DNA of 64,000 bases from Moniliella sp. 'wahieum' (Eukaryota): contig RSEE01000100.1 of the NCBI GenBank assembly GCA_003971905.1, forward strand, positions 62,001 to 126,000, in the 5' to 3' direction. The position numbers and the translations under genes were made by a program. This document shows positions 4,846 through 36,290 of the stretch, piece by piece; the first letter of the stretch is position 1; each line of letters begins with the position of its first letter. The notes under the pieces were generated by a model. The model saw only the letters and a program-made list of their open reading frames with translations, searched no databases and was not told the origin of the DNA.

Positions 4846-7800
4846 TCATATGCGTTCACACCTGGCTGTTGCGGCGGACGGTTCGCCTCGCGGCGCTTCG
4901 TCGCCCGAGTCGGCGGTGAGGGGCGAGGGGGCCTCCAAACCATAGGTCACCGCATCCCGCCGACGCTTGAAGAGAGATTGCTGCGCCACAAGCAGCTCTT
5001 TGGTTTTCGGCATCAACCGCTTTGCGCGTCGCGCTGCTCCGTTTGGGATTGTAATTGTTGTTGCCGCCTTCGGCGGGAGTGAGCGTGCCAGGGCTGACGG
5101 AGGTGCTGGGCGGGAGGGGCAGGTGGTGGGGCAAGGAGGTAGTGGCAGGTGGTGAGGCAGAAACCGTGCGTGGTTCCCCGGGCCCATTGAGACGCGGGGA
5201 GGCGGCCAAGGGGGTGTTGCGTTTGGGCGTGAATACGAGGCCTCCATCCTCAGCGTCCGACGAGGAGGCGGGCTGGTGGGACGAGACGGTGACGGAAACA
5301 GGAGGACGCGGGGAGTTGTGGCGGTCGGGGGAAGGGTGGGAAAGGGGCGAGGCAAGGAGCGATGGCGATGTAGGCGAGGCGACAAGGAAGCCAAATTTTT
5401 CGGACGGGGCATGCTGAAATGGGCCTGTGCTTCGGCCGTCGCTTGTTCCCGCTCGGTTTGACGTTCCTCGTACAGGTCAAAGGTATCGCCCATCCAAAAG
5501 CCGAGATAGCGGATCACTTTGATCGCTTCGGGCATGATGCTGCTCATTTGCATAAAGCCATGGGACCAACCTTCGAGGATGCGAAGATGGACAAACTCGT
5601 CCTCAGGCTCGTCCCACTCCTCTTCTTCCTCCTCTCCTCCCGCTCCAGCCATGGGGAAGGTCATCCGCAGCGTCTCATCCAGCCGGGCGCGCGCTTGCTC
5701 CTGCTGCGCCCGCTTGCGCTCCAATCCGGCCCGCCGCGCCATTTTGGCCTCCCAAATGCGGCCCGCGAGCACAACCGAGTCGTCGCACAACGGATCTTTT
5801 TCTCCGCACACGATGAGGGTAGGAGGGAACTGGGCCAAGACAGAGGCGGGGGCCTTGATAGGGGAAAGGTAGTAATTGGTCGCTAGATTCGGCTGGCGAT
5901 GCGGACCAATGTACAAAATGGCCATGGAACGCATCATGCCCGGGGTCAGGATCCTGTCTTGGAAGTAAGCCGTTGTCGAGCTCATTGTCAGTCGTGTCTC
6001 GACCGGGCCAGCCTTGTGGCTCTGTTGTTGCTTTTCCAAGCGTGCATCCTCGTCGGCCTTGGCCAAAGCTAGTGCCGTCTGCAACTGCTCATCCTTTTTC
6101 TGCCGTGCTGCCAACGAAGCGGAGCGAGAGCGAGAGCGTGTGGACCGCTGCCACTCTTGCGCGTCATTCAGAAGAGAATTCATGCCTACCAAGAGCCCCG
6201 GAAGCCCAGAGACGGTAGGATCATCAAACAAGGGCTGTTGCACTCGGGGTTGCTCGTCGGCCGTGGTGTCTTCCGATGCCACACCCTGTCCTTCCTTCCC
6301 ATCCTCCCAATCATCCGTATCTTCTGCACGGGAAAACTCTGCCCGCTCAGCAAGATGCTTGCGTGCCTCACTTGCCAGGGAAGAGAAGTGGCTTGCCGAT
6401 TTGGCGCGCGACATTTGAGGCCGTTGGGGCTTGGTAGCACGCGAGGGAGACACAGTAGAAGGGTTACCAGAGTTTGCGTCCTGGGCTGACAAGCCAGAAG
6501 CAGCCGTAGCCTGAGTAGCTAGATTGGGGAAACTGCCCGAGGCGCGGCGGATGTGCCGCAGCTCGGCGGCTGAGTATTTACGGGACAGACGGGAGAGAGA
6601 CCGAGACCGAGGGCTAGACGGACGCTCGGACGATGATTCTCCACTGCAGTTACCGTTTCAGCGGGAGTCCCCATCTCGTGCAAGCTGCGTTCACTCTGTT
6701 TGCGCAGCACTCGCAGTGTCTCGGGGTCGAGCCAGACACTGTAGTTGACATTGACCGAAGGGTAAGCGAGTAGGAGCCCAATGGGCTTGGGAAGTGGGGG
6801 GGGGTCTCGCCATTCGGCACGCCGAGCTCTTTACACTGCTCTTCTTCAAGCGGCGTGCGATCCACATGGTAGGCAGCACGAACGTGATGGTCCGGGTACT
6901 CGATGGTACGAATGGCACAGCTTGCGGCCATGTGCCCTCCAGCCGAATCCCCAGTGATAATCACTTGGAAATCATCGCTGCCGCTCATGCCAATTACGCG
7001 ACCCTTGGTGAGGTGGAGGATGCGATAAGCATCAAAGCACTCCTCTTGTGCGTATGGGAAGACAAACTCGGGAGCCTTGGCATAGTTGAGCGACAGCACC
7101 ACTTTGCCCGTTTCCTTGGCCAGTTGCCGAAGACGCTCTTCATGGTGCTCGGGGGACTGCGGAGAGGAGTCAACACAGAGGAAGAGGAGGGATGGGCAAG
7201 GGGGATGAAGAATGGGCGAGAAGACGTACCATGGAGATCCATCCACCCCCAGGAAAGTCGAGGATAAGCTGGTATTGGTCGCGCAGCTGGGTATAGGAGC
7301 CGTTGAAGAAAAGCATGGCTTGGATGGGGCGGCGTGCATAGGCGCCGATGGGCGGGCGGGGCAAGAGGAGCTTCTTGACCAGCTTGGGGCGGTACCAGGT
7401 GAGGGAGGTGGCAAAGCGGATGTAGGGGTTGGTGGTCTTGTGCCACTGGGTGCGGAGCATATCAATGGTGGAGTAGGCGCGGTACTTGCGCAGGCGCTCG
7501 TCGGCGGCACGGTCAAAGACGAGGAAGTAGAAGGTAACAGGACGCTGCAGAGGTCGCGCAGCCACTTGGGCGGATGGCATGCTGGTGGTGAAGGCCGTGT
7601 CGAGGGCGCAGTTGATCCAGGTGGCGCGGTAGAAGTTGCGGTTGTACATGCGTGCCAGGGCTCGGGGGGGGCGAGGCCGAGGACCGAGTCGAAGTTCTTG
7701 AGCCCATACAGCGACACGAGCACGCCGACGACGAGCTGCCAGGGCGAGGCGTGGCGCAGACGGCGGCCGGCCCAGCGCAGGGGCGCGACGCGGGGGCCAT

Positions 7801-7902
7801 GGCGGGGGCCCCAGGCGAGGAGAGCAGACCAGAAGAGGAGAGGACGATGGTCTGGTAGCGCTTGATGCGCCGCGACGGACGCCCGAGCAGATTGTCGATC
7901 AT
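4846..7902 (-). CDS. Hormone-sensitive-lipase-like alpha/beta hydrolase; frameshifted
   Basis: N-terminus MIDNLLGRPS; oxyanion region DFPGGGW; LNYAKAPEFVFPYA; nucleophile elbow GDSAGG; CGEKDPLCDDS; WSHGFMQM; probable intron ~7156-7228. Confidence 0.85.
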
Positions 7903-8811
7903 GGCGTGGGGGCACGCAGCACTGGCGGCGTTGGCGGCGTTGGCGAGCTGGTCGGGGACAACCGAGGACAAACGAGGGAATATGGCCGCCTCCGCTTTCA
8001 CAGCGCGGCGGGCATTCCTGCCCCTCCGCCCGGGCCGGTGTGCCGATGGACGCGCGGCACCACACCGCACCCATGCCGCGCCCCCGAAAGCCGGGTACGC
8101 GGGTACCCGTGACGTCACCCGTGGCTGGCGGCCCCCGCACGGTCATGTGACCGGGCGCGTGCGTTCTGCCCCGGCCTCTCACCTCCACCATATCTTCAGC
8201 TGCATGCGCTTTGTGTTGCTTTGCCAGGGAAGTACTTGTCAGAGGCTGCTGCCTGGTCAAGCTCCACAGCCCGCCTGTTGCGCACGCTACCTCCCAGCCG
8301 AACGAATCCCTGCTGTCGGACCAAAGAAAAAAGTGCCGGCGTGCTAGGAGTGATAGTGGCGCGTGATCATGTGATAGGCGATGCGCATGTAGCACAGGTA
8401 GCACTGCAAGCAGCAAATTGAATGTCTTCCACATCTCGATCGCTCCACGCACGGAGCAGGTAATAGGTCTACTGGTCCACGTCGATAATCGAGCTATCAG
8501 AGCATCACTGAGTGTGCCCAGTAGGTCAGTGGCCCAGCTGCAAGATCCTCTCGCAAGCGCATTACCAGCTTCTGGTCACGGGACCCGTCACGTGGTGTGT
8601 GGCGTGTGGCGGCGTAGGACGCTATCGACCAGGCTTTTGGTTTTCATTGGCCTGAACCCTTTTATTGATGCACTTGATTGAAGTTACCAGCCGGCTACCG
8701 GCTGTCCTAGTAGGTTTGACCTGACCTCAAACTTCTGTGACACCCTATAAACACGCGGCCTCTCCCTCATGCCACATCACAACCACACTCTCCGCCATCC
8801 TTCCTTTTCCC

Positions 8812-15104: not shown

Positions 15105-17936
15105 ATGCGCGTCTCCTCGCCCTTCCTCCCCACATTCATTGTCGCCGCTGCCCTGCAGACGACTGTCCATGCTATCCCCGCCACTTCCGACAACACCCAC
15201 CGTCCCACCACTGCCGCCGCCGCCGAAGCAGCGTGCCATGCTCTCCCCGCAGCCCTGGGCCATTCGGTTACGGCTTCCGACGGCAGCACACTCCAACTCA
15301 ACGGATCCTTCTCCCAGTGGTACGCTGACGGGGCCAACCCTTCGCTTGAGCTCCTGGGCCTGAGCTACCCCCCTGGTTGGGTCCCCTCGACCAAGAAGAC
15401 GCTCAAGATCATTGATGGGCCTGCAGCCGTCGCACCCGACTTGGACTTGACCCAAGACTTTGGCTATGGCCGCCAAGGCACCAACGAACGAGCTCGATCG
15501 ATTGCCAACCACGGCCCTCTTGGTGGCCTCCCCGCATTTTGCCGGTACGTCTTTCGCCGTGGCACGCGGTGCTGTGGGTAGTATATGCCGGGCTCACAAG
15601 ATACTGACATGCTTTTCTCATTCCCTCCTTGTGTTCTCGCACCACCCGTAGACTCGGCGTTCGAATCGTGACCAGCGATAAGACACAGGTGATGACGGAA
15701 GTGTGGTTGCCGCAGGCGGACGATACTGCGTACGGGGGCAAGCCTGGTGCGGTCACAACTGGCCCACTTGCCCCGCTCAACCATTCCGATTACCCTCAAC
15801 CTTCTACGCCCGATTGTTGGATGTTGCCGATGCCACCTTTCCCATCCGGACTGGAAACGCGCATGGGGCAACCGCACGGTTACAACCAGTCCGACCCAGC
15901 TACGGTCTTTACCAACCTTCATGCCTCGCATTCCTCCTCTTCCTCCTCTGGTTCGTCATCCGGTGCTTCGCGCCGAAAACGAGAAGAGCCCCATCTTGAC
16001 CCGCGCAAGGCACCGCCTCCTGGGCACCACTCTCATCATGGCATTCTTTCGGGTGCCGAAGTCTATGGCAATGGCGATTCGATCTACTGGAACGGACGGA
16101 TGATGTTTTTGGGCAATGGCGGTCTTCGCGGCTGGATACCGTACCCGACCATGAAACAAACGTTGGCTCGGCATCGCTATGCCGTGGGCAGCAACATGGG
16201 TCATTCAGGTTCCACGGGCGACGCAACCTTTTCCAATGGCACCCAACACGTGGAAACGCTCAAGGACTTTAGCGGTCGTGCAACTCATGTTTCTACCCAA
16301 CTGAGTCACGTTGTCCTAGATACGTTTTATGGTCCAGAAGCTGGGGTCAGGGTAGCCCAGCACAATCACCCACCACCACGGTGGATCGGCCAAGCGAACC
16401 GAATCCGTCCCGGGTTCTCCAACCAAAGGCGGGACTTCGACAGAGAGCAAACAGGGACGGGTACGATCGTACTTTGCTGGTTGCTCCGACGGAGGCAAAG
16501 CTGGTTTTGCTAGTGCTTCTTTGTACCCGACCGACTTTGATGGCATTTACGCCGGCTCGCCAGGGTCAACTTTAATGGGCTGAATGCGGGGCAGATCCGT
16601 GCGCAGGCGTTGTTCCGTCAGGCTGTCATGCGGCCCAAGGGCGCCTATGTCGCCATGAAGAAACATTGGGCCTCGATTCATAATGTCGTCTTGGCCCAGT
16701 GCGATCATTTGGACGGTGTCGTGGATGGCGTCGTGTCCGATCCCAAGGCTTGCTTGCGCAAACTCGACTTTGCAAAGGACTTGCAGTGCCGTGTGTCGAG
16801 AAAGTCGTCGTCATCGAAGTCGTCTTCATCGACCAAGTCGTCGTCGTCCTCCAAGTCGTCGTCATCCTCCAAGGCGTCGGCATCGTCCAAGTCATCTAAA
16901 TCGTCCGGGCGTCTTCCCATTCCAACTCGCAGGCCGGCACGTCCACGCTGGCATCCATCAACGGTAGTAGCAGTCTATCGCATTCCCATCACCATGACGA
17001 TTCCGCAGCCACCCTCGTCTCGAAGCGAGAGCATCACTCGCCTCACTCAGCTCTTATGCTGCAGCCGCAAGCGCGTCTGGCACCAGACACCGCAAGGGGC
17101 TCCCTGTACGGCTATGATCGACAACAGTGCTTGAATGCGTCCCAGATTTCCACGCTGAACGCCATGTTTGAACCCACGGTTCTGACTGACAAGAACCATC
17201 AGAACCATACCGTCTTCCCAGGCTGGTATCCAGGGTACGAGACCATGCCCGGTACGCTCAAGGGTGCGGAGAAAGGCGATTGGGTGGTTGGAGCTGGCGC
17301 TTTTGGATGGCCCAACGAAGATTATGAAAAGTGGGATCCTTATACCCAATTGACCTATGACCAATTCGCCCTCTCTCTCCAACCCAACGTGACCTTCCTC
17401 AACACGAACAACCCGGACTTGACTGCCTTCTTTTCCGATCCGTCCCGTAAGTTGATCCACACCCACGGTACAACCGACATTACCATTGCCCCTGCCAACT
17501 CGGAGCAATTTTTTGAGCGCGTGACCAGCCATTCCACTCCTGCCAATGGCCACTCAGTCGATGAGAGTTACAAGCTATTTCTCGTTCCGGGTATGGGCCA
17601 TTGTCGAGGCGGCGATGGCGCGTTCCATTTCGGTAGTGTGACTCAAGAAGCCCCAGGCAACCGGCCGTACAAGTTTGACACGGAGCACGATGTACTTCTG
17701 CGTCGCGTCTGTCGCATGGGTGGAACAGGGCAGAAGTACGAACCGAACCACTTGGTCGCGGCATCTTATCCTACCATCGGTCAAGTCTATACCGATGCAG
17801 CTCCCTTTTGGACCTCCAACTATGCATGGGGGCTCCGCTTTACGCGCAAACTCTGTCCCTACCCACAAAAGCCCGTGTACAACGGTGGGGACCCACTTGG
17901 GGGCCTAACGCGCAGCACAGCTTTTCGTGCCAGTGA
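15105..17936 (+). CDS. Secreted tannase/feruloyl esterase family protein; frameshifted
   Basis: Signal-peptide-like N-terminus; WNGRMMFLGNGG; YFAGCSDGG; CDHLDGVVDGVVSDP; KLIHTHGTTD; FLVPGMGHCRGG; RKLCPYPQ; intron ~15545-15650. Confidence 0.88.
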
Positions 17937-20291
17937 TCCCTGGGCGATGGGTATGATACAGATTCCTGATCGGTCATTGTTGATGCATCTCAATCTGGCG
18001 CAGCATGATGCATGACCCACCTTTTCATTTCTTCCCTTGGGTCTTCCACCTACTTTTTCTTCTGATTACGGACACCCGCAATTCGTCTTCTTTCGCGGCC
18101 CCTGTTGTTGCCTTTGCGGTTTTCCTCGCAAGAAGGCGCTAGAACGCTGCAACCGGCACGATACCGTCCCCTGAATAGGTTTTTTCATTATATATGCCAA
18201 CAAACCGTTTAAGGTTTTCTATGCGTTGTTCCCAAATCCCCCCCACCCCCCCCCCCCCCCCCCGCCCCCAATCCTTCCTAACGAGGGTCCTAACGAGGGT
18301 GATCAGTAACCAACCCCATCCCGCCCCCCGCCCCCTCTCCGGCGTTTTATGAGAACCCGAACCCATTGCATATAACTTTCTTTTGCTCTCAGAGTCAGAC
18401 CCTGAAGCTCGAAATTTGACCCTTTTTTATTACCTGAGAGAGATGGCCGGCATGATCGATGGCCATCGACCAGGACCGTAACTGGTAAACCCCCTACCAC
18501 AGCCCATTTACATGCAGCTACGATAGCCTATTCTGCAGTGGTGTTGGTACAGATTGTGAACAAAAGACGGGGGAAGTATCAGCTGCAAAAGGAAACCTCT
18601 GCAGGTATAATAAGGCGTGAAGGTCACGTGGTGAGCCACCCACAGTTTTCTTCAGGGAACGTCGGAATACTATAGCGGGAGGAAACAGGAGATGATAGGG
18701 GAGGCATGCAGACAGGGCAGCTGAGGTGGAGTGACATCTGCATCATTGGAGCGAGCAGCGGGATGCGTGCTGATACTAATTTTCTGCGAGCGGAATCGGA
18801 AAACTCTTTCGCTCCCCCGGTCAACATGTGAGCTTAAGGGCCGTGCAGGGGGAAACAGGGGAACAGGGGAGAACAGGGGAGATCCCCAAGCACTGCTCTA
18901 CCTTCTCACATCTCTGTGGTACATCTGAGTCACTAGTCACTAGTCACTAGGCACTCTACAGATAGTGACTACCGCGAATAACAAAATAAACGAGAGTAGT
19001 TAATAACCTATAGTGACTAGGGACTAGAGTCACTACTGATAGCCCCCACACGGCCATCTGCCCGGCGCTGGCCTTGCGTATCTCGAACCCAACTTGGTTT
19101 GTAGTAGATCGAAGATCCTGCACCCCCCGAACATCCCATGCTATAGCAATCGCGGATGAAGCACAACCTAACTACTAACGCCAATAGGGCCCAAGTCCTA
19201 TTGCAACCAAAACCCCGCGTTTTGGGTGGATCGATCATCGATTCGGTGTGAGATCTGAGATGTGAAAAGGGTGCATGGTTCAAACCTAGATCTTGTCGGG
19301 AGGAACTAATAGCGCGCAACGCGTAACGCCGCATGTTGGACAAAGGAGATGGGTTTCGCACTTCATTCATTTTTGGATGCCAGTGGGGGGTGGAATCTGC
19401 TCCAGAGTCGAACGTTGATTGCTGTAGTGGGATGGAATATGGAGGGGGCTACCCGCAGGCCACAGGACACAGACAGCGTGTTGGAGCGGAGGGAGAAGGT
19501 GTGCAGGCAGGGCGCCTGTGGAGCGCGCGGCAATCACAGCGGCTTTTGGAGGCCATACCCCCCGCCCCTTGCATTGGTGGATGTGAGGGGAAGACACACT
19601 CTCTGCAGTGGTAGGGGGGTGGGGCATATGGAGGCAGTTCTGCGGAAGGTGCCACCCCACACCGCCTATAGGCAAAGCGCGTCGGCGTCTGTTTATAGCA
19701 CGCACAGAGCATAACACTGAGGACGAGGCAGTCCTTGGCGTTTTTACTGCTCTAGAGCCTCGTGCAAAGCCTCTCATCGGCTGCTGCTGGGCCACCGTCG
19801 GCAATAGCACATTCCGTTGTGTATTACATGCACGGGGCACGTTATATACAGCGTGCGCCTGTCCATAGCCCATGCTCGCCTGCTCGCAACTCCGACCCAA
19901 GCACAGCCTGAGTGCTAGTGCCCATGGCCGACGCTTGCTGCTTACAGCCAACCAACCAATCGACGCTGGGTGTGCGGCCCAGTGCCACCCCAATCCCAAT
20001 CCCCATCCCAACCAGTCCCAGCCCCGGCTGCTGCTGCGGCCCGAAGGCGGAGAAGCAGCAGCGCGGATTAGCACTGCAGAGGCCGCAGCATTCACTCACC
20101 CCCCAGCAGCCACCTGCAGCAGCCCCCCCCCCCCCCCCCCCCCCCCCGCCCCAGGCTTATATTAACCCCTGCCCTTATACGCCCCACCCCCGTTGCGTCC
20201 GCACGCACCTACCCCCGCCCCGCCCCTCTCGCTTCTTGCTCCCCCCCCTCCTTCACTTGCACTCCCGCTTCCCCTGTCCTCCCACGGTAGA

Positions 20292-21487: not shown

Positions 21488-22720
21488 TGCTCGGTACGGA
21501 GTGCTGAGTCGGCGTGGTTGTAAGAGGTGTGTCTGCACTAAGCATCTCTCCCACCACCGCACCATACTACATCTACACCGCACCATACCATTCCACCTGA
21601 TACACTCCCACTTTTGTCCTCTCTTTTAACTCTACACAACCCGCATGTGCTTTCCCTTCCCCTTTTTTTTCTTCGCACGGACACGGCGGCGTGTCCATGT
21701 GTGGGCCCTTCTGATCCTCCTCTCGCACCACTCGTTTTTTTTGGCTCATTACCCTCCGTCTCTCCTATCCGCCGCTGATATGCTCCCCCACAACGATTGA
21801 AACCACATACCTGAAAAGGGCTTGAATAGGCGCTCAGCTTCTTTACTTGAATTGATGGCTCCCCCTGCTCGTCTTGACACATAGATGCCTGGATGGTATT
21901 GGTGCCGGTAAAATGTAAATGATTGAGGACGAAGGAGCCATGCTCCGCTCGGCGCTAACAGGGGTGGTCTCTTTTTGTACGTTCGTTCGGGTTTCACATC
22001 GTCCACTGGTGGTCTTTTCATTGGTGGTCATCGATATCATCTATCCTCAGCCGTTTGACATGCCCCACCTGCGCCGGGTTGCTTTGTTGTTGGGTTGGAA
22101 ATGCACCCGGTCAGTTTGACTTGTTGTGGTGAGTTGTTCACAGGTTGGTGCCAAGAAGCGGCTCGGGAATTACTAGTTACTAGTTACTGTAGAAACTTGA
22201 TACGCTAAATAGGCCAATGTGGGGGCACAGAGTGGAATCCCCGAAAAGCTCATGATTGAGCGCGATATAACCTACCCCGATCAACATTTAACACGTGCGG
22301 TTCCACCACGTTCACCACGTTCACCATACTCTCTGTAGATATGAGAATCGCAGGTCTCGCCTACGCAGTTCTAGACTCCATACGTCTTTCCCAGCCCCTC
22401 GTTGGGACATCTGTCCTCCCTCCAACAGTCCATCTCGTAGAATCCCAGCAGGCGCAATTTTTACCATCATCCAAAGGGGCAACTCAGTAAGTACTCACAC
22501 GAACTCAGTTTGGAAGTGCTCCCACTTTGAAGCTTGATACAGGTACGTTTGAGCTCGTGTTTTCTTGCACTCTGTTGTTAGAGGGTACTGCTAGGGTTCT
22601 CCTGCGCGGCCCTCAATGGATCGGTGACGCTCGCCTAGCCGAGCGGAAGCGTTCCGCTCGCAGGCCGCGCACGCCCTGCTCGCTCCATCTCCCTTCTCTC
22701 TCTCCTTTCTCCTTCCCTTC

Positions 22721-22874
22721 AGACGTTGCTTGAAGACTTGTGGCTCACCACTTTGCCTTCACGCCTTGTCTGAAGGTACGCCTCTGCTTCCTTTCTTGAC
22801 CTGTTGCTCCTCACAATGAGACGTTGCTTGAAGACTTGTGGCTCACCACTTTGCCTTCACGCCTTGTCTGAAGG
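22721..22874. repeat. 56-bp perfect direct repeat (22721-22776 and 22819-22874)
   Basis: AGACGTTGCTTGAAGACTTG...GCCTTGTCTGAAGG occurs twice with a 42-bp spacer. Confidence 0.9.
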
Positions 22875-22984
22875 CTGCTTTGCAGCTGATCCATAGGATC
22901 GCGAGTGCTCCCTGTCACAGGCCTAGCTAGCGATGCTGGCGATGGTCGATGGAGATGGCATTCAAGAGCTAAGGAGAGCTAGAG

Positions 22985-25900
22985 CTATGGGCCTTGATAG
23001 GCTCCTGGCCTGGAGGCCAGTGGAAACCCGTGGAAGGGTCGGAACTCACTGCCCCGGTGCACTGTGTGGATCGGGCCACGTGTCACTGAAGGCCGATGGG
23101 CTCTAGACCACTGGTGGTCAACACCCCCCTGGCCAGAGGTCTCAGTGGCACGATGGAAGGTTGTAACGTCCTCAAGCTTGAGGCGAGGCAAGTTGGCCAG
23201 GAGTGAGACCTTAGTGGCTGGTTTGGTGAGGATGTCGGCCGGGTTCTCGTTTCCAGCAATGTGCGCGATTTTGACTTCGCCCGAGTCGACATGCTGGCGT
23301 ACGTTGTGGTACCGGATGTTCAGCTCACGTAGTTTGCCCGTGCTGCCCACTTTTTCGGCCAAGGCAAGTGCCGCCATGTTGTCGCAGTACCAGTGTATGG
23401 GCTCGTCTGAGGTGATGGCACCGAGCTCCAGTAAGATGTTTTTAACGTAGTTCGCATCAATGAGGCCCTCATATCCCGCCGTATATTCGGCCGCAGCAGT
23501 GTTGGTGACGCTCTTGGGTTGACGCACGCTCCTCCAGGACACTGGAACCCCGTAGACGAAAAGCAGGCATCCCGACGTGGAACGCCATTGGTCAGGGTCT
23601 CCAGCCAGGTCGGCATCCGTGTATAGCGCGAGAGCGGGTGCGTTAGGCTCGGGTGTTAGTCGGAGACCGTAGCCCTTGGTACCGTAGAGGTAGCGGAGGA
23701 AGTTTGTTGCCGCAGCGCGGTGGGCCTTGGAGGGATCGGCAGTTGCTCGGCTTAGAGCTGAGATGCCGAACAGCGCATCAGGGCGGCACATGCGGGCAGC
23801 CCACAGCCCAGATCCTACTTTGGCTTGATAGTCGCGTCTCTCGGCGGGCAGTGCGGGCGGTTCGGGGTCGGTGCGCGCGGGGATCATCTTGCTGGGGTGG
23901 GGGAGGCCCATAACCAGGGGTGGCGGAACCTCATGTTTGGCAATGGATTCCTCAATGAATTTTGGCTGGCTAAGGTACAGTTTCCCGTTTATGGTGTCGT
24001 ACTGGCAGCCAAGATGGTAGTGTAGGGGGCCGTTTCCCCGCACCTCGATATGGGTGTTGATCTCAGTGAGGAAGGAATCGTAGCGTGCGTGAGACGTGCA
24101 GGCGATGAGAAGATCGTCGGTGTGCACGGCAAGGAGGACCGTGTCGCCTTTACGGGGTCGGATGAACAAGCACGGCTCAGCCAGAGATTGTACAAAACCC
24201 ATGTCTCCGCGGAGCAAGTCACGGATGAATACCGCCCAGTTTGCGCCGGATTGGTGGAGGCCATATAGGCTTTTCCGGAGACGCCAGACCTTGCCTTTTT
24301 CCTCGGGAAAGAATGGGGGTGGGCGGAGGTACACTTTTTCCGTGAGGGGAGCGTTCAAATAGGCAGAGTGCACATCAGCAGTGAAGAGGTGGAGGCCGAA
24401 CTTTCCAGCAAGGGCGATAAGGCTGAGGATGGCAGGAGTGCGCACGGCAGGGGCGAATGTTTGTCCCCATGTGTCAGCATCCTGCTGGTGGCCCCCGGCA
24501 ACGAGACGGGCTCGGTAGCGTAGGAAATTTCCGTCCGCGTCCGTTTTGGTGTTGATGCGCCACAGACCAATCAGCAGCTGCGCGTCTGGAGGGGGCGTGA
24601 CGACTTCGAATGTGCCGTAGCGGGCTAGGGTGTCGATTTCCGTGCGCATCGCCTCCAGCACTGGTTCGAATGAGGGGTGTGATTGGAGGCCCTTCATTGT
24701 CTTGGGTGCAACAGGTACTCCGTCCTTGGTGAGCTGGATGCGCTCGTGCGGCCCTGGCTCGCTAAGGGCGATCATCGCCTTGTATTCAGGCGGATGGAGA
24801 CCGTCGCTGTACGCGGGCAGGGCAGTGTCGGGCAGTGGGAAGCGTAGGCCGATCGCAGGACTACGACTACCGTCAGGGAGGGGAACCGGAGGCAGCGCGG
24901 CAGCGTGTGCGTGGAAGTCACCATCATGAGGGTCGTCCGCTACGGGGAGCTGTGCCCAGTCAAGGTCAAAACGGCGCTGGTGGGTCCGGGCGGGGTACCG
25001 TCTGGTGGTGGGGGTGGTTGGATGGGTGTCGTTTTGTCTTGCGATGGTCGCGTCAGTATCAGTGTTGATTCTCGGTGGTGTGTTGGGATTTGCAACTTCA
25101 ATTTTGTTCATTTTTTCTTCTCCCTTTTTGGTTTCAGTGTCAGTCATAGTTCTGTCAGGCAGGGGTTGAGCGGGGAAGCGAGATACGTCAGGCGGAAAGC
25201 GGTCGGGGAAAACCTCGTGGTATTGGCGCTGGGTCCACTTGTATGGTTTTGCCCATTGGGATCGGAACGTGCCCATGGACGGGTCGTACACAGCCCAGCG
25301 CCAACCCTTTGTACCTCGACCTGCGTCGTACCCGACGAGCATGGCTTCGACAGCCCGCGGACTGAGCTTATGGTCACGTTGGTCCTGGGCCAGGTGAAGG
25401 TACGCCAAGGATCCGAAGGCGTGCATTGGCAGCGGTGGGGGTGACCCCTTGTACAGCTCAGCCCGAGATTGTGTGCCCTGGCGTGGAGATGTCGGTGGCA
25501 TGAGGTTGTGCGTCCAGCACCCTGCCAGCAAGGCATCCTGCCACCAGTTTGATGTCGGGAGGCCCGAGGCGATGATGAGTTGGCGCGCGCGTGTGGTGAT
25601 TGCCTGGATGGCTCGCTCGGCCACCCCATTTGATTGACTTTGGCCTGGTATGGTGGTTTCCGTCGTGATACCTTCGGATTCAAGGAACGGACGGAGTGCG
25701 CTGGTGAGCTCGGGGGCATTGTCTGTCTTCAAGATGCGAAGCAGACGGTCCTTTCCGATGCGTTGCTCGCGGGTGATGAGTTTTTTCAGCTCCGCCGTGG
25801 CTTGTCCTTTCGTCTTTAGGGGAACAGCGAAGGTGTAACGGCTCCAGTCATCAACCGCGACCAGGGCGTATCCATGTCCCATGCCAGTGATGCGAGGGAG

Positions 25901-26593
25901 GTCGACTACGTCGGCGTGCAGTACTTCGAAAGGACGTTCCGAAATGCGGCGGCCGTGGCGCGAAGGGTGGCTGGGCGCTTTGGCCAGAGCTTTTGTGCAG
26001 GTGGGACAATGCCAGAAGGGGCGGATGCGTCGGATTTGGGCAGGGCTGACGCGGAGGCTCGCTCGCGCGTTGGCGGTTAGTGTCGGGAGTAGGTCTAGCG
26101 CGGCGTGGTTGTACTGTTGGTGAACGTACATGACGTGCTCGATGGTGTTGGCTGCGGTGTGTTGGGTGGCGACGGCAGCTTTGGCCGCGTGTTCGTTTGT
26201 GGGTGTCGGTTTCGGGACGATGTTCAGCTTGTATGAGGAATCCGCGATTTGGTGATATTTGCCATGCTTGTCATTTAACCAGATACCTTTTCGGTGGGGG
26301 GCGAACCAGGATGCGTGGCCTGCGTCACTTATTTGCGCTACGCTCGTGAGATTGCTTGCTATGCCGGGGACGTATAGACTGCCGGGTAGGTCTACATGGA
26401 TACATTTGCCGTCGGTACACTTGATACCGATGCTACATGTTCCGCGTCCACTGGCTTTAATATGTTTTCCATCAGCGATTTCGATTGAGCGGTTGCTGGG
26501 CTTGAGGGTTTTGAATACCCTGAGATCCTTCCAGATGCTAGGATCCGCGCCCGAGTCGTGACGAGACTGGATGTCCTGGTTGCCCGCGAGTTC
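22985..26593 (-). CDS. pol: Copia Pol (protease, integrase, reverse transcriptase, RNase H), in frame with gag after a UAG
   Basis: Open frame from 26593: protease HDSGA; LYVPGIASNL; HHCC (HQQYNH..CPTC); DDE (LHAD, KTDNAPE, NGVAER); RT ADVHSAYLN, KSLYGLHQSG, VHTDDLL; RNase H YTDAD, AEY, YCDN, NPADILTK. Confidence 0.95.
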   Translation of the reverse strand, partial: ELAGNQDIQSRHDSGADPSIWKDLRVFKTLKPSNRSIEIADGKHIKASGRGTCSIGIKCTDGKCIHVDLPGSLYVPGIASNLTSVAQISDAGHASWFAPHRKGIWLNDKHGKYHQIADSSYKLNIVPKPTPTNEHAAKAAVATQHTAANTIEHVMYVHQQYNHAALDLLPTLTANARASLRVSPAQIRRIRPFWHCPTCTKALAKAPSHPSRHGRRISERPFEVLHADVVDLPRITGMGHGYALVAVDDWSRYTFAVPLKTKGQATAELKKLITREQRIGKDRLLRILKTDNAPELTSALRPFLESEGITTETTIPGQSQSNGVAERAIQAITTRARQLIIASGLPTSNWWQDALLAGCWTHNLMPPTSPRQGTQSRAELYKGSPPPLPMHAFGSLAYLHLAQDQRDHKLSPRAVEAMLVGYDAGRGTKGWRWAVYDPSMGTFRSQWAKPYKWTQRQYHEVFPDRFPPDVSRFPAQPLPDRTMTDTETKKGEEKMNKIEVANPNTPPRINTDTDATIARQNDTHPTTPTTRRYPARTHQRRFDLDWAQLPVADDPHDGDFHAHAAALPPVPLPDGSRSPAIGLRFPLPDTALPAYSDGLHPPEYKAMIALSEPGPHERIQLTKDGVPVAPKTMKGLQSHPSFEPVLEAMRTEIDTLARYGTFEVVTPPPDAQLLIGLWRINTKTDADGNFLRYRARLVAGGHQQDADTWGQTFAPAVRTPAILSLIALAGKFGLHLFTADVHSAYLNAPLTEKVYLRPPPFFPEEKGKVWRLRKSLYGLHQSGANWAVFIRDLLRGDMGFVQSLAEPCLFIRPRKGDTVLLAVHTDDLLIACTSHARYDSFLTEINTHIEVRGNGPLHYHLGCQYDTINGKLYLSQPKFIEESIAKHEVPPPLVMGLPHPSKMIPARTDPEPPALPAERRDYQAKVGSGLWAARMCRPDALFGISALSRATADPSKAHRAAATNFLRYLYGTKGYGLRLTPEPNAPALALYTDADLAGDPDQWRSTSGCLLFVYGVPVSWRSVRQPKSVTNTAAAEYTAGYEGLIDANYVKNILLELGAITSDEPIHWYCDNMAALALAEKVGSTGKLRELNIRYHNVRQHVDSGEVKIAHIAGNENPADILTKPATKVSLLANLPRLKLEDVTTFHRATETSGQGGVDHQWSRAHRPSVTRGPIHTVHRGSEFRPFHGFPLASRPGAYQGP

Positions 26594-27826
26594 CTATTTG
26601 TCAGATAGGGCAAGGTCCACAGACAGGGTCTCCCCTTCGGAGACGTCGTCTTCGGTGGCAATGTGCGCTCGCGCGGAGCTGTTGCGGTGCCATTTGTTGT
26701 TCGAAGGAACCCCGGTGTGGCCGGACGGCTTTCTCGCAAGAGCACCCCCGCTACGGGGAGATGCACCGGCAGGAGGACCCCCGCTATGCTGCTGGGATCC
26801 CGCGCTGTCGTGTTTGCCAGCGCCCGAGTTGGCGGTCCGGGGGTGACGGCCCCGGTACGGAATTCTGTACTCTGGGTCCGCTGGGATTCTCTCCACGTCT
26901 TGCATTGTCTCCGCCAGAGTCATGTGCTCTAGGCGGCGACGGTCACCAGGGTCGCGGAGGGCCCCGACGAGGATACGGCGGAATTGCTCGTCCGACATCG
27001 GTGTGGTTGCGCTGATCCGGTTGCGGAGCGTCCCCATTTCAGATAGGAACTCGCTCCCGCTGCGCCGGTTTTGGTAGCAGTGGTGAAAGCGACTGGACAA
27101 TTCATGATACGTCTTGCAGTCGACCGTACCGTATTTGTTTCGCAGGGCACGGAGCAAGTCAGCTGACGTGTCAACGTTGTCCTGTGCAATAATGGCAGAT
27201 TGAACGTCGTTCGGGAGGTGGGACCACAGAAGGTTCTGGAGGCGTAGATCGAGGGACGAGTCGTAGTGTGGTGACGATGGACCGGAGCGAACGATGTCCT
27301 TCGCGGCGGGGTGGATGCGGTCCAGGATGTTGAGGATGGAGGGCTCCCAGAGCACATATTCGGTGGGGTCGCGGAAGGCGTCCTTGCGCGTCGCGTTGGT
27401 ACGCTCGATCTCTTTTGACGCGCGTTTCTCAGCGTGGCGAAGCTCGGCCATGTCCTCACTCGCGGATGCAAGGGCCTCACGGGTGTTTTGCGGCTTCGTG
27501 AATTCAACGGCCAATACATATTTCTCCAACGCGAGGGTGAGCGTGTAGATCCAATTTTCCTTTCCGCCCGGTGTTTTCTTGCTCTTCGGTCCATACGCCG
27601 CCGTGTGTGCATCCGTAGCGAACGAGCGGCATGTGGAGCGGAGATTGTCAGCGCTGGTGGGCTTGAACGCGCGGGTGCTTGCGAGGAGGTTGTCTCTGAC
27701 GTCGGTGAGGGCCTGTTGCCAGGTCGGGTCGGAGACAGGGGTGGTGGTCGGTTCGTCGATGTCCTGCGCCTCTTCGATGACAGAGACTTCGGGAGGAGGG
27801 GTGTTTTCTTCCAGTTCGGGGGGCAT
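26594..27826 (-). CDS. gag: Copia Gag (410 aa) ending in TAG
   Basis: Position downstream of the 5' LTR/PBS; copia-gag-like segment SADLLRALRNKYG..SEFLSEMGTLRNRI; no CCHC knuckle visible. Confidence 0.85.
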   Translation of the reverse strand: MPPELEENTPPPEVSVIEEAQDIDEPTTTPVSDPTWQQALTDVRDNLLASTRAFKPTSADNLRSTCRSFATDAHTAAYGPKSKKTPGGKENWIYTLTLALEKYVLAVEFTKPQNTREALASASEDMAELRHAEKRASKEIERTNATRKDAFRDPTEYVLWEPSILNILDRIHPAAKDIVRSGPSSPHYDSSLDLRLQNLLWSHLPNDVQSAIIAQDNVDTSADLLRALRNKYGTVDCKTYHELSSRFHHCYQNRRSGSEFLSEMGTLRNRISATTPMSDEQFRRILVGALRDPGDRRRLEHMTLAETMQDVERIPADPEYRIPYRGRHPRTANSGAGKHDSAGSQQHSGGPPAGASPRSGGALARKPSGHTGVPSNNKWHRNSSARAHIATEDDVSEGETLSVDLALSDK

Positions 27827-27960
27827 GGTGGCTGATTTTTCCTTTGTTTTTTTTTTGAATTGGTTGGTGTGTGGTGCCGATGGTGGCGTTGGGGTGGTGG
27901 TGGTGACGGTGGGCGCCGATGGTGGTGCTGAGTATTGATCCTTTGCGCCAGTGGGGTGCT

Positions 27961-27974
27961 TCAGATTGTAGCTC
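27961..27974 (-). promoter_or_regulatory. Putative primer-binding site complementary to a tRNA anticodon arm
   Basis: GAGCTACAATCTGA directly abuts the 5' LTR with no TGG; its complement reads TCAGA-TT-GTA-GC-TC, the layout of an anticodon stem-loop. Confidence 0.6.
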
Positions 27975-28586
27975 TGTCACAGGCCTAGCTAGCGATGCTG
28001 GCGATGGTCGATGGAGATGGCATTCAAGAGCTAAGGAGAGCTAGAGCTATGGGCCTTGATAGGCTCCTGGCCTGGAGGCCAGTGGAAACCCGTGGAAGGG
28101 TCGGAACTCACTGCCCCGGTGCACTGTGTGGATCGGGCCACGTGTCACTGAAGGCCGATGGGCTCTAGACCACTGGTGGTCAACACTCCCAAGTCGCACT
28201 CTAGCATCTGTACAGTAGGATCCATGGAGGGACGCCTGCATGTGACATGTGGTTCTCTGGCAGACCTCAGATCTCACTCCTGTATTAGTTTAGTCGTGCA
28301 GCTTGAGGCTCTCGGGATAATCGATAATCGATCATGCATCATGGATCGTCTTGCCTTTTGCGTCTTCTTACAAAAAGGCGCAGTCGAATGGGTCACTGCG
28401 TTTCCTTTCCCCCTTCAATTAATTGCTCTTTAGTCTGCCAGTTACCAGTGAGCTGCGCTCAAGCTTCAAATTGGATGTCAAGATTCAAGCTTCACGTTTT
28501 GCGCATGCTCTTCTGTGCGCTGTGGAAGAATACACAACGTGCGGGGAAGACCATTCTGATAGGAATGGTTAATGGACTGGGCTGGG

Positions 28587-30180: not shown

Positions 30181-31167
30181 AAGTGAGTGCTGAGCACCAA
30201 GTACGGAGTACTGAGTACTGTGTACTTTGGCTGCCGCCTCACCTTTTAGCGCCAAAACAAAAAGCATAGTGGTGCGCTGTTGTCCAAGGCGCACGAGGGT
30301 CAATGATTAATGATCGATGATCAATGAGCCACCTTTTTGCTCGCTTGCGGGTTGTGGGTTGTGGGTTGTGGGTTGTGGGTTGTCGCTCTCGTAGCTCGTT
30401 GCACTTGGCCTTCTGTGCCACCTACATCCTTCACGTTGTGAAATCTGCTATGCTGGGACGATAACAGGGACCGGGGGGTGGGGGGTGGGGGGCGTAACGC
30501 GTACCATATGCCAAAGGGCGCCGTGTGAATAGCTTGTAGGCGGGCAATTCGCGCTCCGTGGCGCAGGACTCACATGCCATATGTCACAGCTGCTCAGGCT
30601 CTGTGCTCGGCTCAGGCGCTCAGGTGTTGATCTCCAGCATGGGGGCTCACCGGCTTCAACCGAAGCCAATTTTCGTTGCGAGTTCGGCCACAGGATGTCT
30701 GTCCATGCACCATGCCATCGGCTGTTGGCGGGTACTTACTACTTACTACTTACTACTTACTATTTACTACTTGCTGTTGGGCCCCAGAGCGCCCCCGTAT
30801 GGTCGTCTCAGGCTTAAGGTCGAACCGGCACCTGCGGCAACCGGCCCGTAACCTTTAGGCCGTGGGGCCTTGGGCCTTTTAATTTTAACCCCAACCGCAC
30901 AAGGCTGCCGGGTGGGCGTGTGGGGTATTTCTCATTCCGCCTTTCCCGCCCCATCGGCGGCGCACGGCGCGGGGTCACCGGTCATCGGTCACCGGGCATC
31001 ACTCACCGACCGGTCCCAGTGGGGTCACTGACTCAGCGTGAGCTCCGTGGGATGATGGATGATGGATGATGGCTGAGCTCAGCCGGCAGGCAGGCGGGCA
31101 GCGCACGCACCCGACCGACCCTCCGCCCGCCCGATCCACGCCGAGCGCCCCAGCCGCCCGCGAGCAC

Positions 31168-31247
31168 GGTTCTGGGTTCTGGTTCTGGGTTCTGGGTTCT
31201 GGGTTCTGGGTTCTGGGTTCTGGGTTCTGGGTTCTGGGTTCTGGGTT
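31168..31247. repeat. (GGGTTCT)n heptamer repeat, about 11 copies
   Basis: Read directly; one unit lacks a G. Confidence 0.95.
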
Positions 31248-31479
31248 GTCTCTGCCTCTGCCTCTGGGCGGACCACCACCGTGCAAGGACCCACTGTTGA
31301 CGCGTTGACGGCAGCCCCCCCCGCTTAGATCAGCTCTGCCTTCTGCTCCCTCAGGCCTCAGCCCTCAGCTTCCCGAGCTTCGACGTACACGGCGTCCTTT
31401 GTTCTTCTCTTGCTTGCTCTAGCGTGCGTTGTGCTTTTGCTTGTTTATTCCTGCCACCACCATCCTTCCCTCGTGCCCA

Positions 31480-32931
31480 ATGCCCTTGGCTTTCCTGTCC
31501 CCTGCTGCTCGTCTCGCTGCCCCGGGCCTGCTCGCCCGCGCGCCCCTCCTGCCCTTGGCCCACTCGCGTGGCTATGCCACGTCGCAGTCCAGTGGCCCGT
31601 TCAATATGACCAGTACGTTGTGCGCTTCCTTGTTCCTCCTTTGAGGACCGACTGACTGGGCCCACACTGCGCTGTTCTCTTGGGGTTTTTCTTCCGTCTG
31701 TCTGTGTATCTGTTTGTTGACCGTTGTGTGCTTTTCGCCTTTTCGCCTCAGAATTTTCCAAGTACAACTGGGAGGATCCGGTGGGGTTGGAAACCAACTT
31801 GACCGACGACGAAAAAGCGATTCGCGACACGGCCGCTGAGTTTGCTACGGACTACTTGGCGCCGCGGGTGAAGGAGATGGCACGGAACGAAACGTGGGAC
31901 CCGACCCTCTTGCCTGCCATGGGCAACGTTGGTCTCCTAGGCCCGACCATCCAAGGGTACGGCTGTGCCGGTGAACAATGTCGCGTACGGGTGATTGCGC
32001 GTGAAATCGAGAAAGTTGATTCGGGTTACCGCTCCATCTTGTCCGTTCAATCTTCTTTGGCGATGGGTGCGATTGCCCAGTTCGGTACCGACGCACAGAA
32101 GGAACGGCTTTTGCCCCGGATGGCACGCGGCGAGCTGGTAGGGTGTTTTGGTCTGACGGAGCCCAACCATGGATCGGACCCGAGCGGGATGGAGACCACA
32201 GCGGAAGATGTGGGGGACGGTGAGGTGGTGTTGAATGGGAGCAAGACGTGGATTTCCAACTCGCCGTATTCGGATGTGTTTGTGGTATGGGCCAAGGCCA
32301 AGTGGGATGGTAAGGTGCATGGGTTTGTGCTGGAACGCGGTACAAAGGGGTTGGAGGCGCCCAAGATTGCGCATAAAACCGCTTTGCGCGCTTCGGTCAC
32401 AGGATCCATCTTCCTGGATAATGTACGCGTCAAGATGGAGGCAAGTCACTTGGCTCGCGCCAAGCCGGGCTTGGGCGCGCCGTTCGAGTGCTTGAACAGT
32501 GCTCGGTACGGTATCAGTTGGGGCTCGATGGGCTCGCTCGAGGCGTGCATTGCCGAGGCTCGCGAATACGCTTTGGCTCGGCACCAGTTCCACAAACCCC
32601 TGGCGGGATTCCAATTGGTCCAGAAGAAATTGGTCGATGCGCATGCAGAGGTCCAGCTGGGGCTGCTGCTTTCGCTCCAGGTAGGCCGGGCCAAGACGCA
32701 GGCACGTACAACCCGCAAATGATCAGCTTGGCCAAACGCAACAATTGCGGTAAGGCCCTGCACCACGCTCGCATCCTGCTGGAAATCCTGGGCGGGAACG
32801 CGGCCTCGGACGAGTACCACCTCCCCCGCCACGCGGCTAACTTGTACGTCGTCAATACGTACGAGGGCACGTACGATGTCCATGGCTTGATCTTGGGCAA
32901 TGCCTTGACTGGCGTGCCTGCCTTTGCGTAG
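31480..32931 (+). CDS. GCDH: Mitochondrial glutaryl-CoA dehydrogenase (acyl-CoA dehydrogenase family)
   Basis: Presequence-like exon 1; intron 31613-31751; [61 protein letters not shown]. Confidence 0.92.
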
Positions 32932-33833
32932 GCCACCGCTGGGCTTGCCCGTGTCGCCGCATCCCCTTCCCGCGGTGGGAACGGGCGAGATGCATGAGGA
33001 TTCACAAGGCTTTTGTTTTGTCCCCAGGGACTAGGGGGGATGGGGGTCGGGGGCGAGGCAGGATACGTAGGACTAGGGCTGATGCGGTAGAGCGCGGGGG
33101 GGGGGGGGGGGCGATGCTGCTGCGCAATCAGCCTGATTCATCTTTCCCCTCGTGGGCAATTTACAGCCGTTGCAGTGCGAGGCAAGGCCCGCATTTAGCC
33201 TCGACTGGCTAAGCCCCCTGTTATTTACCCCGCACCTCTCTGTCGATCGACGATGGCTGAGGCAGCTGGCAGAGCGGAACCGACGCGGCGGAAGACGGGG
33301 CAGGCCGGGTTAGCATTCAATATTCAACGTTCAAATGTGCAATGCTGAGCAGGTGGGGACAGAGGCACGGGGGGCGTGTGGCGGTGGGGACAGGGCACGG
33401 GCATGCGTGTTTGCCTCCACGCGGCCAGATCCACATTGCTGCAGGTGCAGTGATCGATGATCGTCCAGGGCGATGCTCGCCCTGTGCCGCGTGCCCCAGG
33501 CAGCCACCGCGGCACAGCGCTGGGTGTGGTGGGTGGGGTGCTGGGCGGCGCACTGCTGCAGTGTCGCGCGCGCCCTCCACGCGTCGCTCGGCCTGGGCGG
33601 CGGCCGGCGGCTTGCCTAGCCGCTTGCCGCATGCGTGCTGGATATGGGTACTGGGCCATGATCTCGATGATCCACTCGGTGTGACATGGAGCACTGCCTG
33701 CCTCTTCCAGCACCCACTAGTACGTGCGACTCAGCGCAGCCGCCGCTCCCTCTTCCAGTCCCTCTCGCCCGCTCCCCCACCGCCTTCTTGCCTCCATCTC
33801 CACCGCCACCGCCACCCCACCGCCCACCCCACC

Positions 33834-36290
33834 ATGGCTCCCGCCAAGGGCAAGGGCAAGGGCAACGCGCCCGCCAGCCGCATGACCGCCAGCCAGCTCT
33901 ACACCCACATGGTCAGCACCAACCAGCTCGCCCAAGCGAGCATCGACGACCTCCACCGCCAAGAGGCCTTTGCAGCCTCCCAAGTCTCCCTTGCCGCCCA
34001 GTCCACCGACACCCTCGCGCTCAAGTCCACCAAGCGCCACGACGGCTCCTCCTACATTGCCCTCGGCCTCGACGGCGACAGCGAAGAAGAAACAGGCCTG
34101 CTCGACGGCGACGAGCAGCCCGAAACCGAGCGGGAAAAGGCCCAGCGCGTCGGCCGCACCCCAGGATGGTTCACCAACACCCATCGCGCCATCGACGAGT
34201 GGGTCAACACGTGCAGGGAAACGTTCCGACAGAGTCGCCGCGTGCGCATCGTGTCCTACCTGACCATTTTTGTCCTCGGCATGCTGCTTGTTGGCTCCTT
34301 CCTTTCGCCCGAGCGTCGTGCTTCCCTCTCCTCTATGGCCCCGTGGAAATCCGCCGATGAAGACCGACCCCTGACGCCCGAGGAGCAGGCCGCTGGTACC
34401 CACGCCTCTCCCGCGCTCGACCACCCTGACGACGCACAGGGGCTGGGCAATGGCCTGCTGGATCTCCGCCCGGGCGAGGCCGGCACATGGTACAAGTCCC
34501 ACCCTGGCCCCATGGCTACTGGCACGCTCCCCTTTTGGGCGTCGGCAGCGGCGCTGCCCACGGGTGCATCGCACACCCGTGGTCACCAGGTCTACCAAAC
34601 CGCTTTGGCCGGCGACCAGGCCGTGCAAACCTTGGCGCCATTTGACCACATGGGCCCGCTTACGCCTTACCGCTCTGCGCCTGGCTTTGGCATAGACAAT
34701 CTCCGCTACCGCGACGCATCGGGCTTGATGCCCAACGCTCAAGGACAAGGCTCCTGCACCATCGATCAAGTTCACATTCTTCATCGTCACGGCGCTCGCT
34801 ATCCTACCTCTGGCTCTCCCGTTCATGCGCTTCAGTCCCTCACCCGTGCCCGCGAGGCTGGCAAAGTCACCTTTTCGGGTCCTCTCGCGTTCCTCCAGTC
34901 TTGGTCTTACCAGTTGGGCAGCGAGTTGCTCACGCCCCCGGACGATTGGAACTGTACCACAGCGGTGTGCAGGCGCACATGCAGTACGCCCACCTGGTCG
35001 GCGACCAACACCAAGGTGTGGCCGTGTCGAGCCATGCGACATCGTCGACCCAGAAGAGAGATAAGTGGACTAAGCGCGCTGCACTCCGTGCCAGTCGCCG
35101 CCAATGGGGTTGGAGCACATCTACCGCCGACCACTCTTGGTCCGCGCTGGCTCTCAACGCCGCATTGTCGATTCCGCCCCTGTCCTGGCTCCAAGGGTTC
35201 TTTGGCCCGCAGCTCTGGAACGATTTTGCCGTCCCACCCGAAACGGACTTGGTCCCGCCCGATGGTGAGATGGTCTCCCACCCTCTTGGTAACCAGGTCG
35301 CACGCATCGATTTTCAAGTCCACCCAGAAGCTCCCGGATGGAACACTACCTTGGCAAGTAACTTTGCTTGTCCCGCCGCCGCCGGGGGGAACGCCACAAC
35401 GGCAGAACGCTTGACTGCCTTCCGTCAGACCTACCTCCACCAAGCGCTCGAACGCCTGCAGCCTCACATCCACATTGTTGGTGGTGGTGCTGCGGCGGCG
35501 CAGGGCCAGGACCAAGGACAAGAACAAGCAGATTGGGATGGTAAGTTGACCCCGGCATTGTTGAATGCGATGCAACAGCTGTGCTCGTACGAAACTGTCG
35601 CCCTGGGCCAATCTTCCTTTTGCTCCTTGTTCACCGCGGCCGAGTGGGAGGGGTACGAGCGGCTGTGGGACATGCAGTTCCACGGGTACGATGGGGCTGG
35701 TACGCCCTTGGGCGCGGCACAGGGCGTAGGGTGGACACAAGAGTTCCTCGCTCGCTTGACCAACCAGGCTTGGAACGCAACCGCCCAAACGAGTGAAAAC
35801 ACAACGGTCAACATGGACCCAACTAAGTTCCCCACCTCGGCGTCTCAACGCGTCTTTGTCGATTTCACCCACGACAGTATCCTCACCTCTGTCTTGGCTG
35901 CCTCGGCACCCAGGACCTCAATACCCTCCCGCCGTTCGATCCTGCCTCCCCGTCCTCGCTAGACGCACACGCTCGCTTCCGCACCAGCCATCTCGTGCCC
36001 TTTGCCGCGCGCATGGTCTTCGAACGCTTAACGTGTACTGAGGATGCCTCCCCGTCCGCCCACGGAGCGGGACAATACGTTCGCATGATCTTGAACGATG
36101 CTTTGGTCCCACTCGCTTCGGTCGGATGTACAGATCGTCCGGACGGCCTGTGCTCCGTACAGGAACTCCTGCGCGTACTTACCCCCGCTTGGAACGTACT
36201 ACCCACTCGTTTGCACAGGTGTGTGCGACGAATGCCACCACCACTACCTCTGCGCCTGCGTTGTAGGTTTCTCATCCCTCGATGCATCAC
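33834..36290 (+). CDS. Histidine acid phosphatase/phytase with N-terminal membrane anchor; frameshifted, 3' end approximate
   Basis: HRHGARYPT; LCSYETVALGQSSFCSLFT; DFTHDS; VPFAARMVFE; VRMILNDALVPL; TM segment IVSYLTIFVLGMLLVGSFL. Confidence 0.88.

Follow-up and report, generated by a model that had tools for sequence, protein, structure and literature searches.

A single in-frame UAG between gag and pol of a young Ty1/copia retrotransposon from Moniliella: a candidate site of stop-codon readthrough

Gammaretroviruses and several fungal gypsy elements are well known to express Gag-Pol across an in-frame stop codon. For the copia superfamily, the literature searched yielded Tca2 of Candida albicans and its relative Tca4 as cases in which such a stop divides gag from pol; one paper additionally lists SIRE1 with a stop at either gag/pol or pol/env. 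A copia element that uses UAG at the gag/pol border was not found in the literature searched, and the survey of Gao et al. 2003 (RNA 9:1422) may list some. We analysed 64,000 nucleotides (nt) from Moniliella sp. 'wahieum' (GenBank assembly GCA_003971905.1, contig RSEE01000100.1, positions 62,001 to 126,000 of the forward strand); this whole stretch is referred to as the window, and all coordinates are window positions. It contains a complete Ty1/copia long terminal repeat (LTR) retrotransposon on the minus strand (22913-28185), the sole copy within the window. Its gag and pol lie in the same reading frame, with one UAG between them. For this intact, recently inserted element, readthrough of the UAG to give Gag-Pol appears to be the best explanation, to which we assign a probability of roughly 0.6.

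Tca2 (pCal) resembles the window element in being a copia element with gag and pol in one frame and a single in-frame stop between them; it is active and present in few copies. In Tca2 the stop is UGA; behind it come a purine-rich spacer of 8 nt (AAAACAGG) and what is predicted to be a pseudoknot, whereas the window element has UAG, 4/8 purines and a pseudoknot scan at the level of shuffled sequences. In Moloney murine leukaemia virus (MuLV), as in the window element, the stop is a UAG at the gag/protease border, the same frame continues behind it and the next base is G. The MuLV fusion arises by misreading of the stop by a normal tRNA at ~5%; there, however, a purine-rich spacer and a pseudoknot are required, neither of which is evident in the window. 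MuLV is moreover a retrovirus with the pol order protease, reverse transcriptase, integrase, in contrast to the copia element studied here. The elements Tj1, Tcry1 and Tosmo1-3 of fission yeasts are likewise fungal LTR elements in which gag and pol are set apart by one in-frame stop, preceded by AA; the stop is conserved across related elements and is essential for transposition in Tj1. They differ in belonging to Ty3/gypsy and in using UGA in the conserved 8-bp context GAA TGA CT. With MuLV, Tca2 and Tj1 as precedents, the layout as such will not surprise a specialist. Should the UAG of the window element be bypassed without a local stimulatory structure, the element would stand beside Tca2 as another, independent copia case, differing in its stop codon, in which to solve a bypass problem of this kind.

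The UAG occupies positions 26594..26596 (minus strand) in the context GAC AAA UAG GAA CUC, and the RNA across the junction reads ...CUA UCU GAC AAA UAG GAA CUC GCG GGC AAC CAG GAC AUC CAG UCU CGU CAC GAC UCG GGC.... Upstream lies the gag open reading frame (ORF) of 410 codons (26597..27826, minus strand; ATG at 27826), which lacks a CCHC knuckle. Downstream, a pol frame of 1202 codons, identified by its ORF and by Pfam matches, continues in the frame of gag (22988..26593, minus strand) and ends at a TAG (22987-22985) inside the 3' LTR. Read from the gag ATG onwards, the 1613 codons of this frame contain no stop other than the junction TAG. The D-S-G active site of the protease is encoded by codons 13-15 past the stop (26549..26557, minus strand), inside a Pol_BBD match covering pol residues 13-92. 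The first AUG of the pol frame past the stop is codon 155 (26129..26131, minus strand); it lies downstream of the protease, at a distance of 462 nt (154 codons) from the stop. Because the DSG motif stands at codon 13 and the first AUG at codon 155, the protease is obtainable solely as a continuation of Gag. The junction thus shows a feature of the retroelements with programmed gag-pol readthrough: one in-frame stop divides the two genes, and the protease is not preceded by a start codon. A reading made earlier from the sequence alone (the sequence-only reading) had described gag and pol as lying in the same frame around one UAG, with DSG 13 codons further on, an in-frame pol ORF of 1048 amino acids (offset 462 nt) and no Met between stop and protease; both the sequence and its translation agree with this description, the ATG of that ORF being the one at 26131.

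The Pfam matches on pol follow the copia order, Pol_BBD (protease barrel), rve, SH3_retrovirus and RVT_2. The integrase core rve covers pol residues 219-318 (25640..25939, minus strand), and its HHCC and D,D35E residues are readable in the translation; the reverse transcriptase RVT_2 covers residues 660-888 (23930..24616, minus strand). For RNase H no Pfam match was obtained on pol, and the terminal ADILTK fits the RNase H motif ADxxTK (motif named in PMC5445492).

A diverged sister of the element was present in public sequencing runs. A contig of 5089 nt from the metagenome run X1 spans 23046-28137 and differs from the window at 180 of 5092 positions (~3.5%). Only two indels separate it from the window, +1 at 23123 and -4 at 27843, both outside the interval from the gag ATG to the pol end. 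The proteins P0046 and P0002 were predicted from a 5089-nt Logan contig that was taken to be the X1 contig. The sister Gag, P0046, comprises exactly 410 amino acids, 386 of which are identical to the window Gag, and has the same end, LSVDLALSDK. The sister Pol, P0002, whose predicted start is the first Met past the junction, comprises 1004 amino acids with 964 identical residues. Wherever differences were listed, runs X2 and X3 contained the same variant as X1; record 10 of X2 spans 26444-27057, the X3 contigs do not reach over the junction, and run X7 gave no aligned contig. Judged by its predicted proteins, the sister carries a stop at this very codon, and its gag and pol frames are related as in the window. 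The comparison of copies at the junction, which had been proposed as a check of the sequence-only reading, therefore gave agreement in the last residue of gag, as seen from protein P0046. A stop private to the window copy, or one created by the assembly, is essentially excluded by this comparison, and we lean towards the view that the gag-UAG-pol layout is a stable design of the element family.

The differences between the two copies were further evaluated for selection on pol. The 40 of 199 difference entries that reach up to position 24029 were used, 34 of them in the element; the 6 outside it were left out. Three element positions (23076, 23081 and 23113) were set aside, since they lie in the LTR past the 1-nt insertion of the sister. 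The 31 pol substitutions thus listed (23128-24029) comprised 21 synonymous and 10 non-synonymous changes, with the two adjacent changes in codon 985 scored singly. Under neutrality with the X1 mutation spectrum 29.8% synonymous changes are expected, giving P(≥21 of 31) = 1.4 × 10⁻⁵. P0002 over its full length shows 40 residue differences in 1004 positions and contains no stop; drift would be expected to give ~75 non-synonymous substitutions together with 2.6 stops, provided that the differences are evenly spread, and in the listed stretch they were (31 observed versus 32.9 expected). Constraint was weaker on Gag, in which 24 of 410 residues differed where drift would give ~30 non-synonymous changes. 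By these counts, pol is under purifying selection in the stop-bearing lineages, two of which were compared. As selection on pol has acted along lineages that bear the stop, pol must be translated from them, past the stop.

In the mechanism that we propose, most ribosomes would stop at the UAG and release Gag alone, while a small fraction would decode the UAG by an ordinary near-cognate tRNA and continue into a Gag-Pol fusion. The protease, which begins ~12 codons past the stop, would then cleave the fusion. The outcome would be an excess of Gag over Pol, as retroelements require, and in this sense the stop appears to serve as an inbuilt brake on the amount of enzyme made. Translational readthrough as the means of bypass, its frequency and the signal behind it are what we infer.

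Several points weigh against this proposal. The lineages compared are two, the window copy and the one variant common to X1, X2 and X3. The stop of the sister was placed by the end residue of P0046, the differing letters listed (40 of 199 entries) reaching to 24029, short of the junction, and the sister Pol was compared from its first Met on, with the 154 codons between stop and Met outside that comparison. Downstream of the stop, known stimulatory signals were furthermore not recognized. The TMV-type (tobacco mosaic virus) context UAG CAR YYA does not occur, as the sequence-only reading had already stated: GAA CUC follows the stop. The 8-nt purine-rich spacer of the MuLV/Tca2 type is not present either, as GAACUCGC contains 4/8 purines. 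The hairpin that the earlier reading had drawn around the junction (26537..26596, minus strand) does exist as the minimum-energy fold of the isolated 60 nt (-15.7 kcal/mol). As a stimulatory signal, however, it was no better than chance, since 99 of 200 dinucleotide shuffles folded at least as well (z = 0.07). The proposed hairpin also pairs the stop codon itself; with the stop codon in its stem, it would melt with a ribosome at the stop. The fold of the 120 nt past the stop (z = -0.75) and that of a further, longer window (z = -0.20) did not stand out from shuffled sequences. In a scan for H-type pseudoknots starting 4-15 nt past the stop, carried out with a crude custom script beyond whose reach a non-standard structure would lie, the best score was equalled or beaten by 140 of 300 shuffles. 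The check for a fold or pseudoknot after the stop thus yielded no structure above the shuffled controls. Finally, for Tca2, the closest copia precedent, a stretch of 300 nt around the stop gave no readthrough in S. cerevisiae (PMC2194720); an in-frame stop alone is therefore no proof of canonical readthrough.

The sole match to a known leaky context is the AAA codon directly upstream of the UAG: for S. cerevisiae, Tork et al. 2004 (quoted in PMC10085805) reported that an AA dinucleotide just 5' of a stop promotes readthrough. To account for the Tca2 bypass, the authors of PMC2194720 suggested cis elements at a distance or some other non-canonical route past the stop. We consider it possible, and only tentatively so, that the UAG studied here is bypassed without a local stimulatory structure, by the minimal context AAA-UAG-G, by remote cis elements or by a trans-acting factor. 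Of the initial proposal that Pol is made by UAG suppression, a designed stop and its bypass are backed by the sister copy and by the selection on pol, the decoding mechanism is what we infer, and the stimulatory RNA structure was not upheld.

Other explanations of the junction stop were weighed against the same data. The stop might be a shared defect, in which case the element would belong to a non-autonomous sub-lineage copied in trans by the enzymes of stop-free masters. New retrotransposon copies are often dead on arrival, with ~0.3 in-frame stops per new copy estimated for two wheat families (PMC9744471); identical LTRs are therefore no proof of competence. A stop-free master could also exist, given that two lineages were seen and that contigs drop rare variants. 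Such a defect is at odds with the purifying selection on pol and its lack of further stops, and it would have had to fall exactly at the gag/protease border in 1613 codons that contain no other defect. Protein searches, too, did not find a stop-free variant, the candidates of 915-2912 amino acids other than P0002 being distant (24-35% identity). We regard a shared defect as unlikely. We assign a still smaller probability to an error of sequencing or assembly, or a mutation private to the window copy, as the source of the TAG. The window holds one copy of the element and several of its host genes are split between frames, which would suit an error, but a 3.5%-diverged copy from an independent public run has a gag that ends at the same residue, and with this an error or private mutation becomes scarcely credible.

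Pol might alternatively be produced without ordinary readthrough, from an internal promoter, by non-AUG initiation past the stop or by a ribosome hop. The Tca2 junction has weak promoter activity and its local sequence gave no readthrough in S. cerevisiae, and PMC5009743 raises in-frame hopping over a stop as an alternative that may lie hidden behind apparent readthrough. In the window element, however, an AUG is absent between stop and protease, the first one lying at codon 155 beyond the protease barrel; the codon past the stop, GAA, does not match the take-off codon AAA that a hop would use; and free Pol would require its own route into particles. The Tca2 authors themselves derive Pol from LTR-driven gag-pol RNA. 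Together these points make such a route quite unlikely. Removal of the stop from the RNA, through a short in-frame intron or through editing, would give a minority of continuous Gag-Pol mRNA. In-frame GT..AG intervals of 27 nt and 45 nt do begin at GTGGAC (26620) and contain a branch-like CTGAC, but among the 48 in-frame GT..AG pairs whose excision would take out the TAG and leave DSG in place, none has a GTRNGT donor. The shortest intron candidates, at 27-54 nt, are very short compared with fungal introns, which weighs against splicing. Drosophila copia and plant copia elements set their Gag:Pol ratio by splicing; for the window element we judge removal of the stop from the RNA to be very unlikely. 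Two further candidates were rejected. A sense reading of TAG is unlikely, since the element has this triplet a single time in 1613 codons and two host ORFs with Pfam support terminate at it, and a stop-restart was dismissed because an AUG is absent near the stop.

With readthrough of the UAG as the preferred reading, the element would offer a clean natural substrate for defining a minimal fungal readthrough signal: a young copy with a conserved stop and no obvious pseudoknot, whose site is empty in related strains. For annotation, the lesson would be that a single stop should not class such elements as dead.

The element shows the paired TG...CA LTRs and the 5-bp target-site duplication expected of a copia member. 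The 5' LTR of 211 nt (27975..28185, minus strand; TGTTG...TGACA) has 0 mismatches to the 3' LTR of 211 nt (22913..23123, minus strand), and the element is flanked by the target-site duplication GGGAG, with the upstream copy at 28186..28190 and the matching downstream copy at 22908..22912 (both given for the minus strand). With identical LTRs and this duplication, the element is young and complete. Contigs of X1 and X2 pass from 22912 straight into the 13 letters that follow 28190 and so contain an empty target site, from which it follows that the window copy is a recent, polymorphic insertion. From its sequence, the element is apparently active. A purine run AGGGGGG adjoining the 3' LTR (23124..23130, minus strand) is, to judge by its position alone, the likely polypurine tract. 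The letters directly after the 5' LTR, where a copia element would be expected to have a primer-binding site for a tRNA (usually initiator Met), are GAGCTACAATCTG..., and the window at 27945-27974 reads GAGCTACAATCTGAAGC...; no tRNA gene was found in the window.

In the window copy, the pol frame runs for 46 codons inside the 3' LTR (22985-23123) before its TAG. The sister has the 1-nt insertion at 23123, and its pol ends a few codons after ...TETSGQ. This C-terminal tail inside the LTR, not conserved between the two copies, is probably non-functional.

After the sister, the nearest relatives of pol were copia proteins of Ustilago hordei and allies (24-31% identity), which have the same Pfam domains and, unlike the window element, are annotated as single proteins of ~930-1400 amino acids. 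In P0003, one of these single-ORF relatives, a gag-like N-terminus continues through DSGA without a stop. On the basis of P0003 and of the annotation of these relatives as single proteins, the in-frame stop appears to be derived in the lineage of the window element. A junction query of 204 amino acids, with the stop read as X, returned 339 candidates, 0 of which were significant. Among metagenome contigs one locus was found, with 30 residues at 37% only, and viral contigs contained no relatives.

The ORF upstream of the junction is consistent with Gag in position and size (410 codons), and its family matches are weak. At threshold, gag gave no Pfam match; all sub-threshold matches were to Gag families (E = 0.048-0.085, with Retrotran_gag_4 at E = 0.048), and the sister protein P0046 gave Retrotrans_gag, also sub-threshold (E = 0.084). 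Atlas leads for gag were TYA and Retrotran_gag_2, at 0.88. An AlphaFold model of gag, built from a 2-row alignment, was helical and of low confidence, with a mean pLDDT of 48. Disorder is predicted for the last ~90 residues of Gag, a stretch rich in G, S, P and R. An exhaustive protein search with gag gave three matches at E <= 0.001, namely the sister P0046, P0047, which is a weak match to a standalone gag-like protein of 507 amino acids (25% identity), and P0048, which was rejected as a repeat artefact. The gag profile did not match the gag-bearing copia protein P0025 (probability 0.2%). In protein searches, this Gag is thus almost an orphan.

Beside the insertion site, a 71-nt direct repeat occurs in two copies (22706-22874; 98 nt from start to start, 92% identical). 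The X1 contig omits exactly 98 nt at this repeat (22720 to 22819); related organisms thus differ in the number of repeat copies. Elsewhere in the window, host genes for a tannase/feruloyl esterase, an Abhydrolase_3 protein, an acyl-CoA dehydrogenase and a histidine phosphatase are each split over 2-3 ORFs (15608-18012, 4846-8434, 31721-32722 and 33342-35962); in the tannase gene, two ORF pieces overlap in different frames. Introns or indel errors could account for the split host ORFs, a point that touches on the remark of the sequence-only reading that this assembly errs mostly by deletion. Between the element and the acyl-CoA dehydrogenase gene lies a simple-sequence tract with a short tandem repeat (~31080-31330), whose conceptual translations on both strands contain peptide repeats such as PEPRTQN and GSGFWVL.

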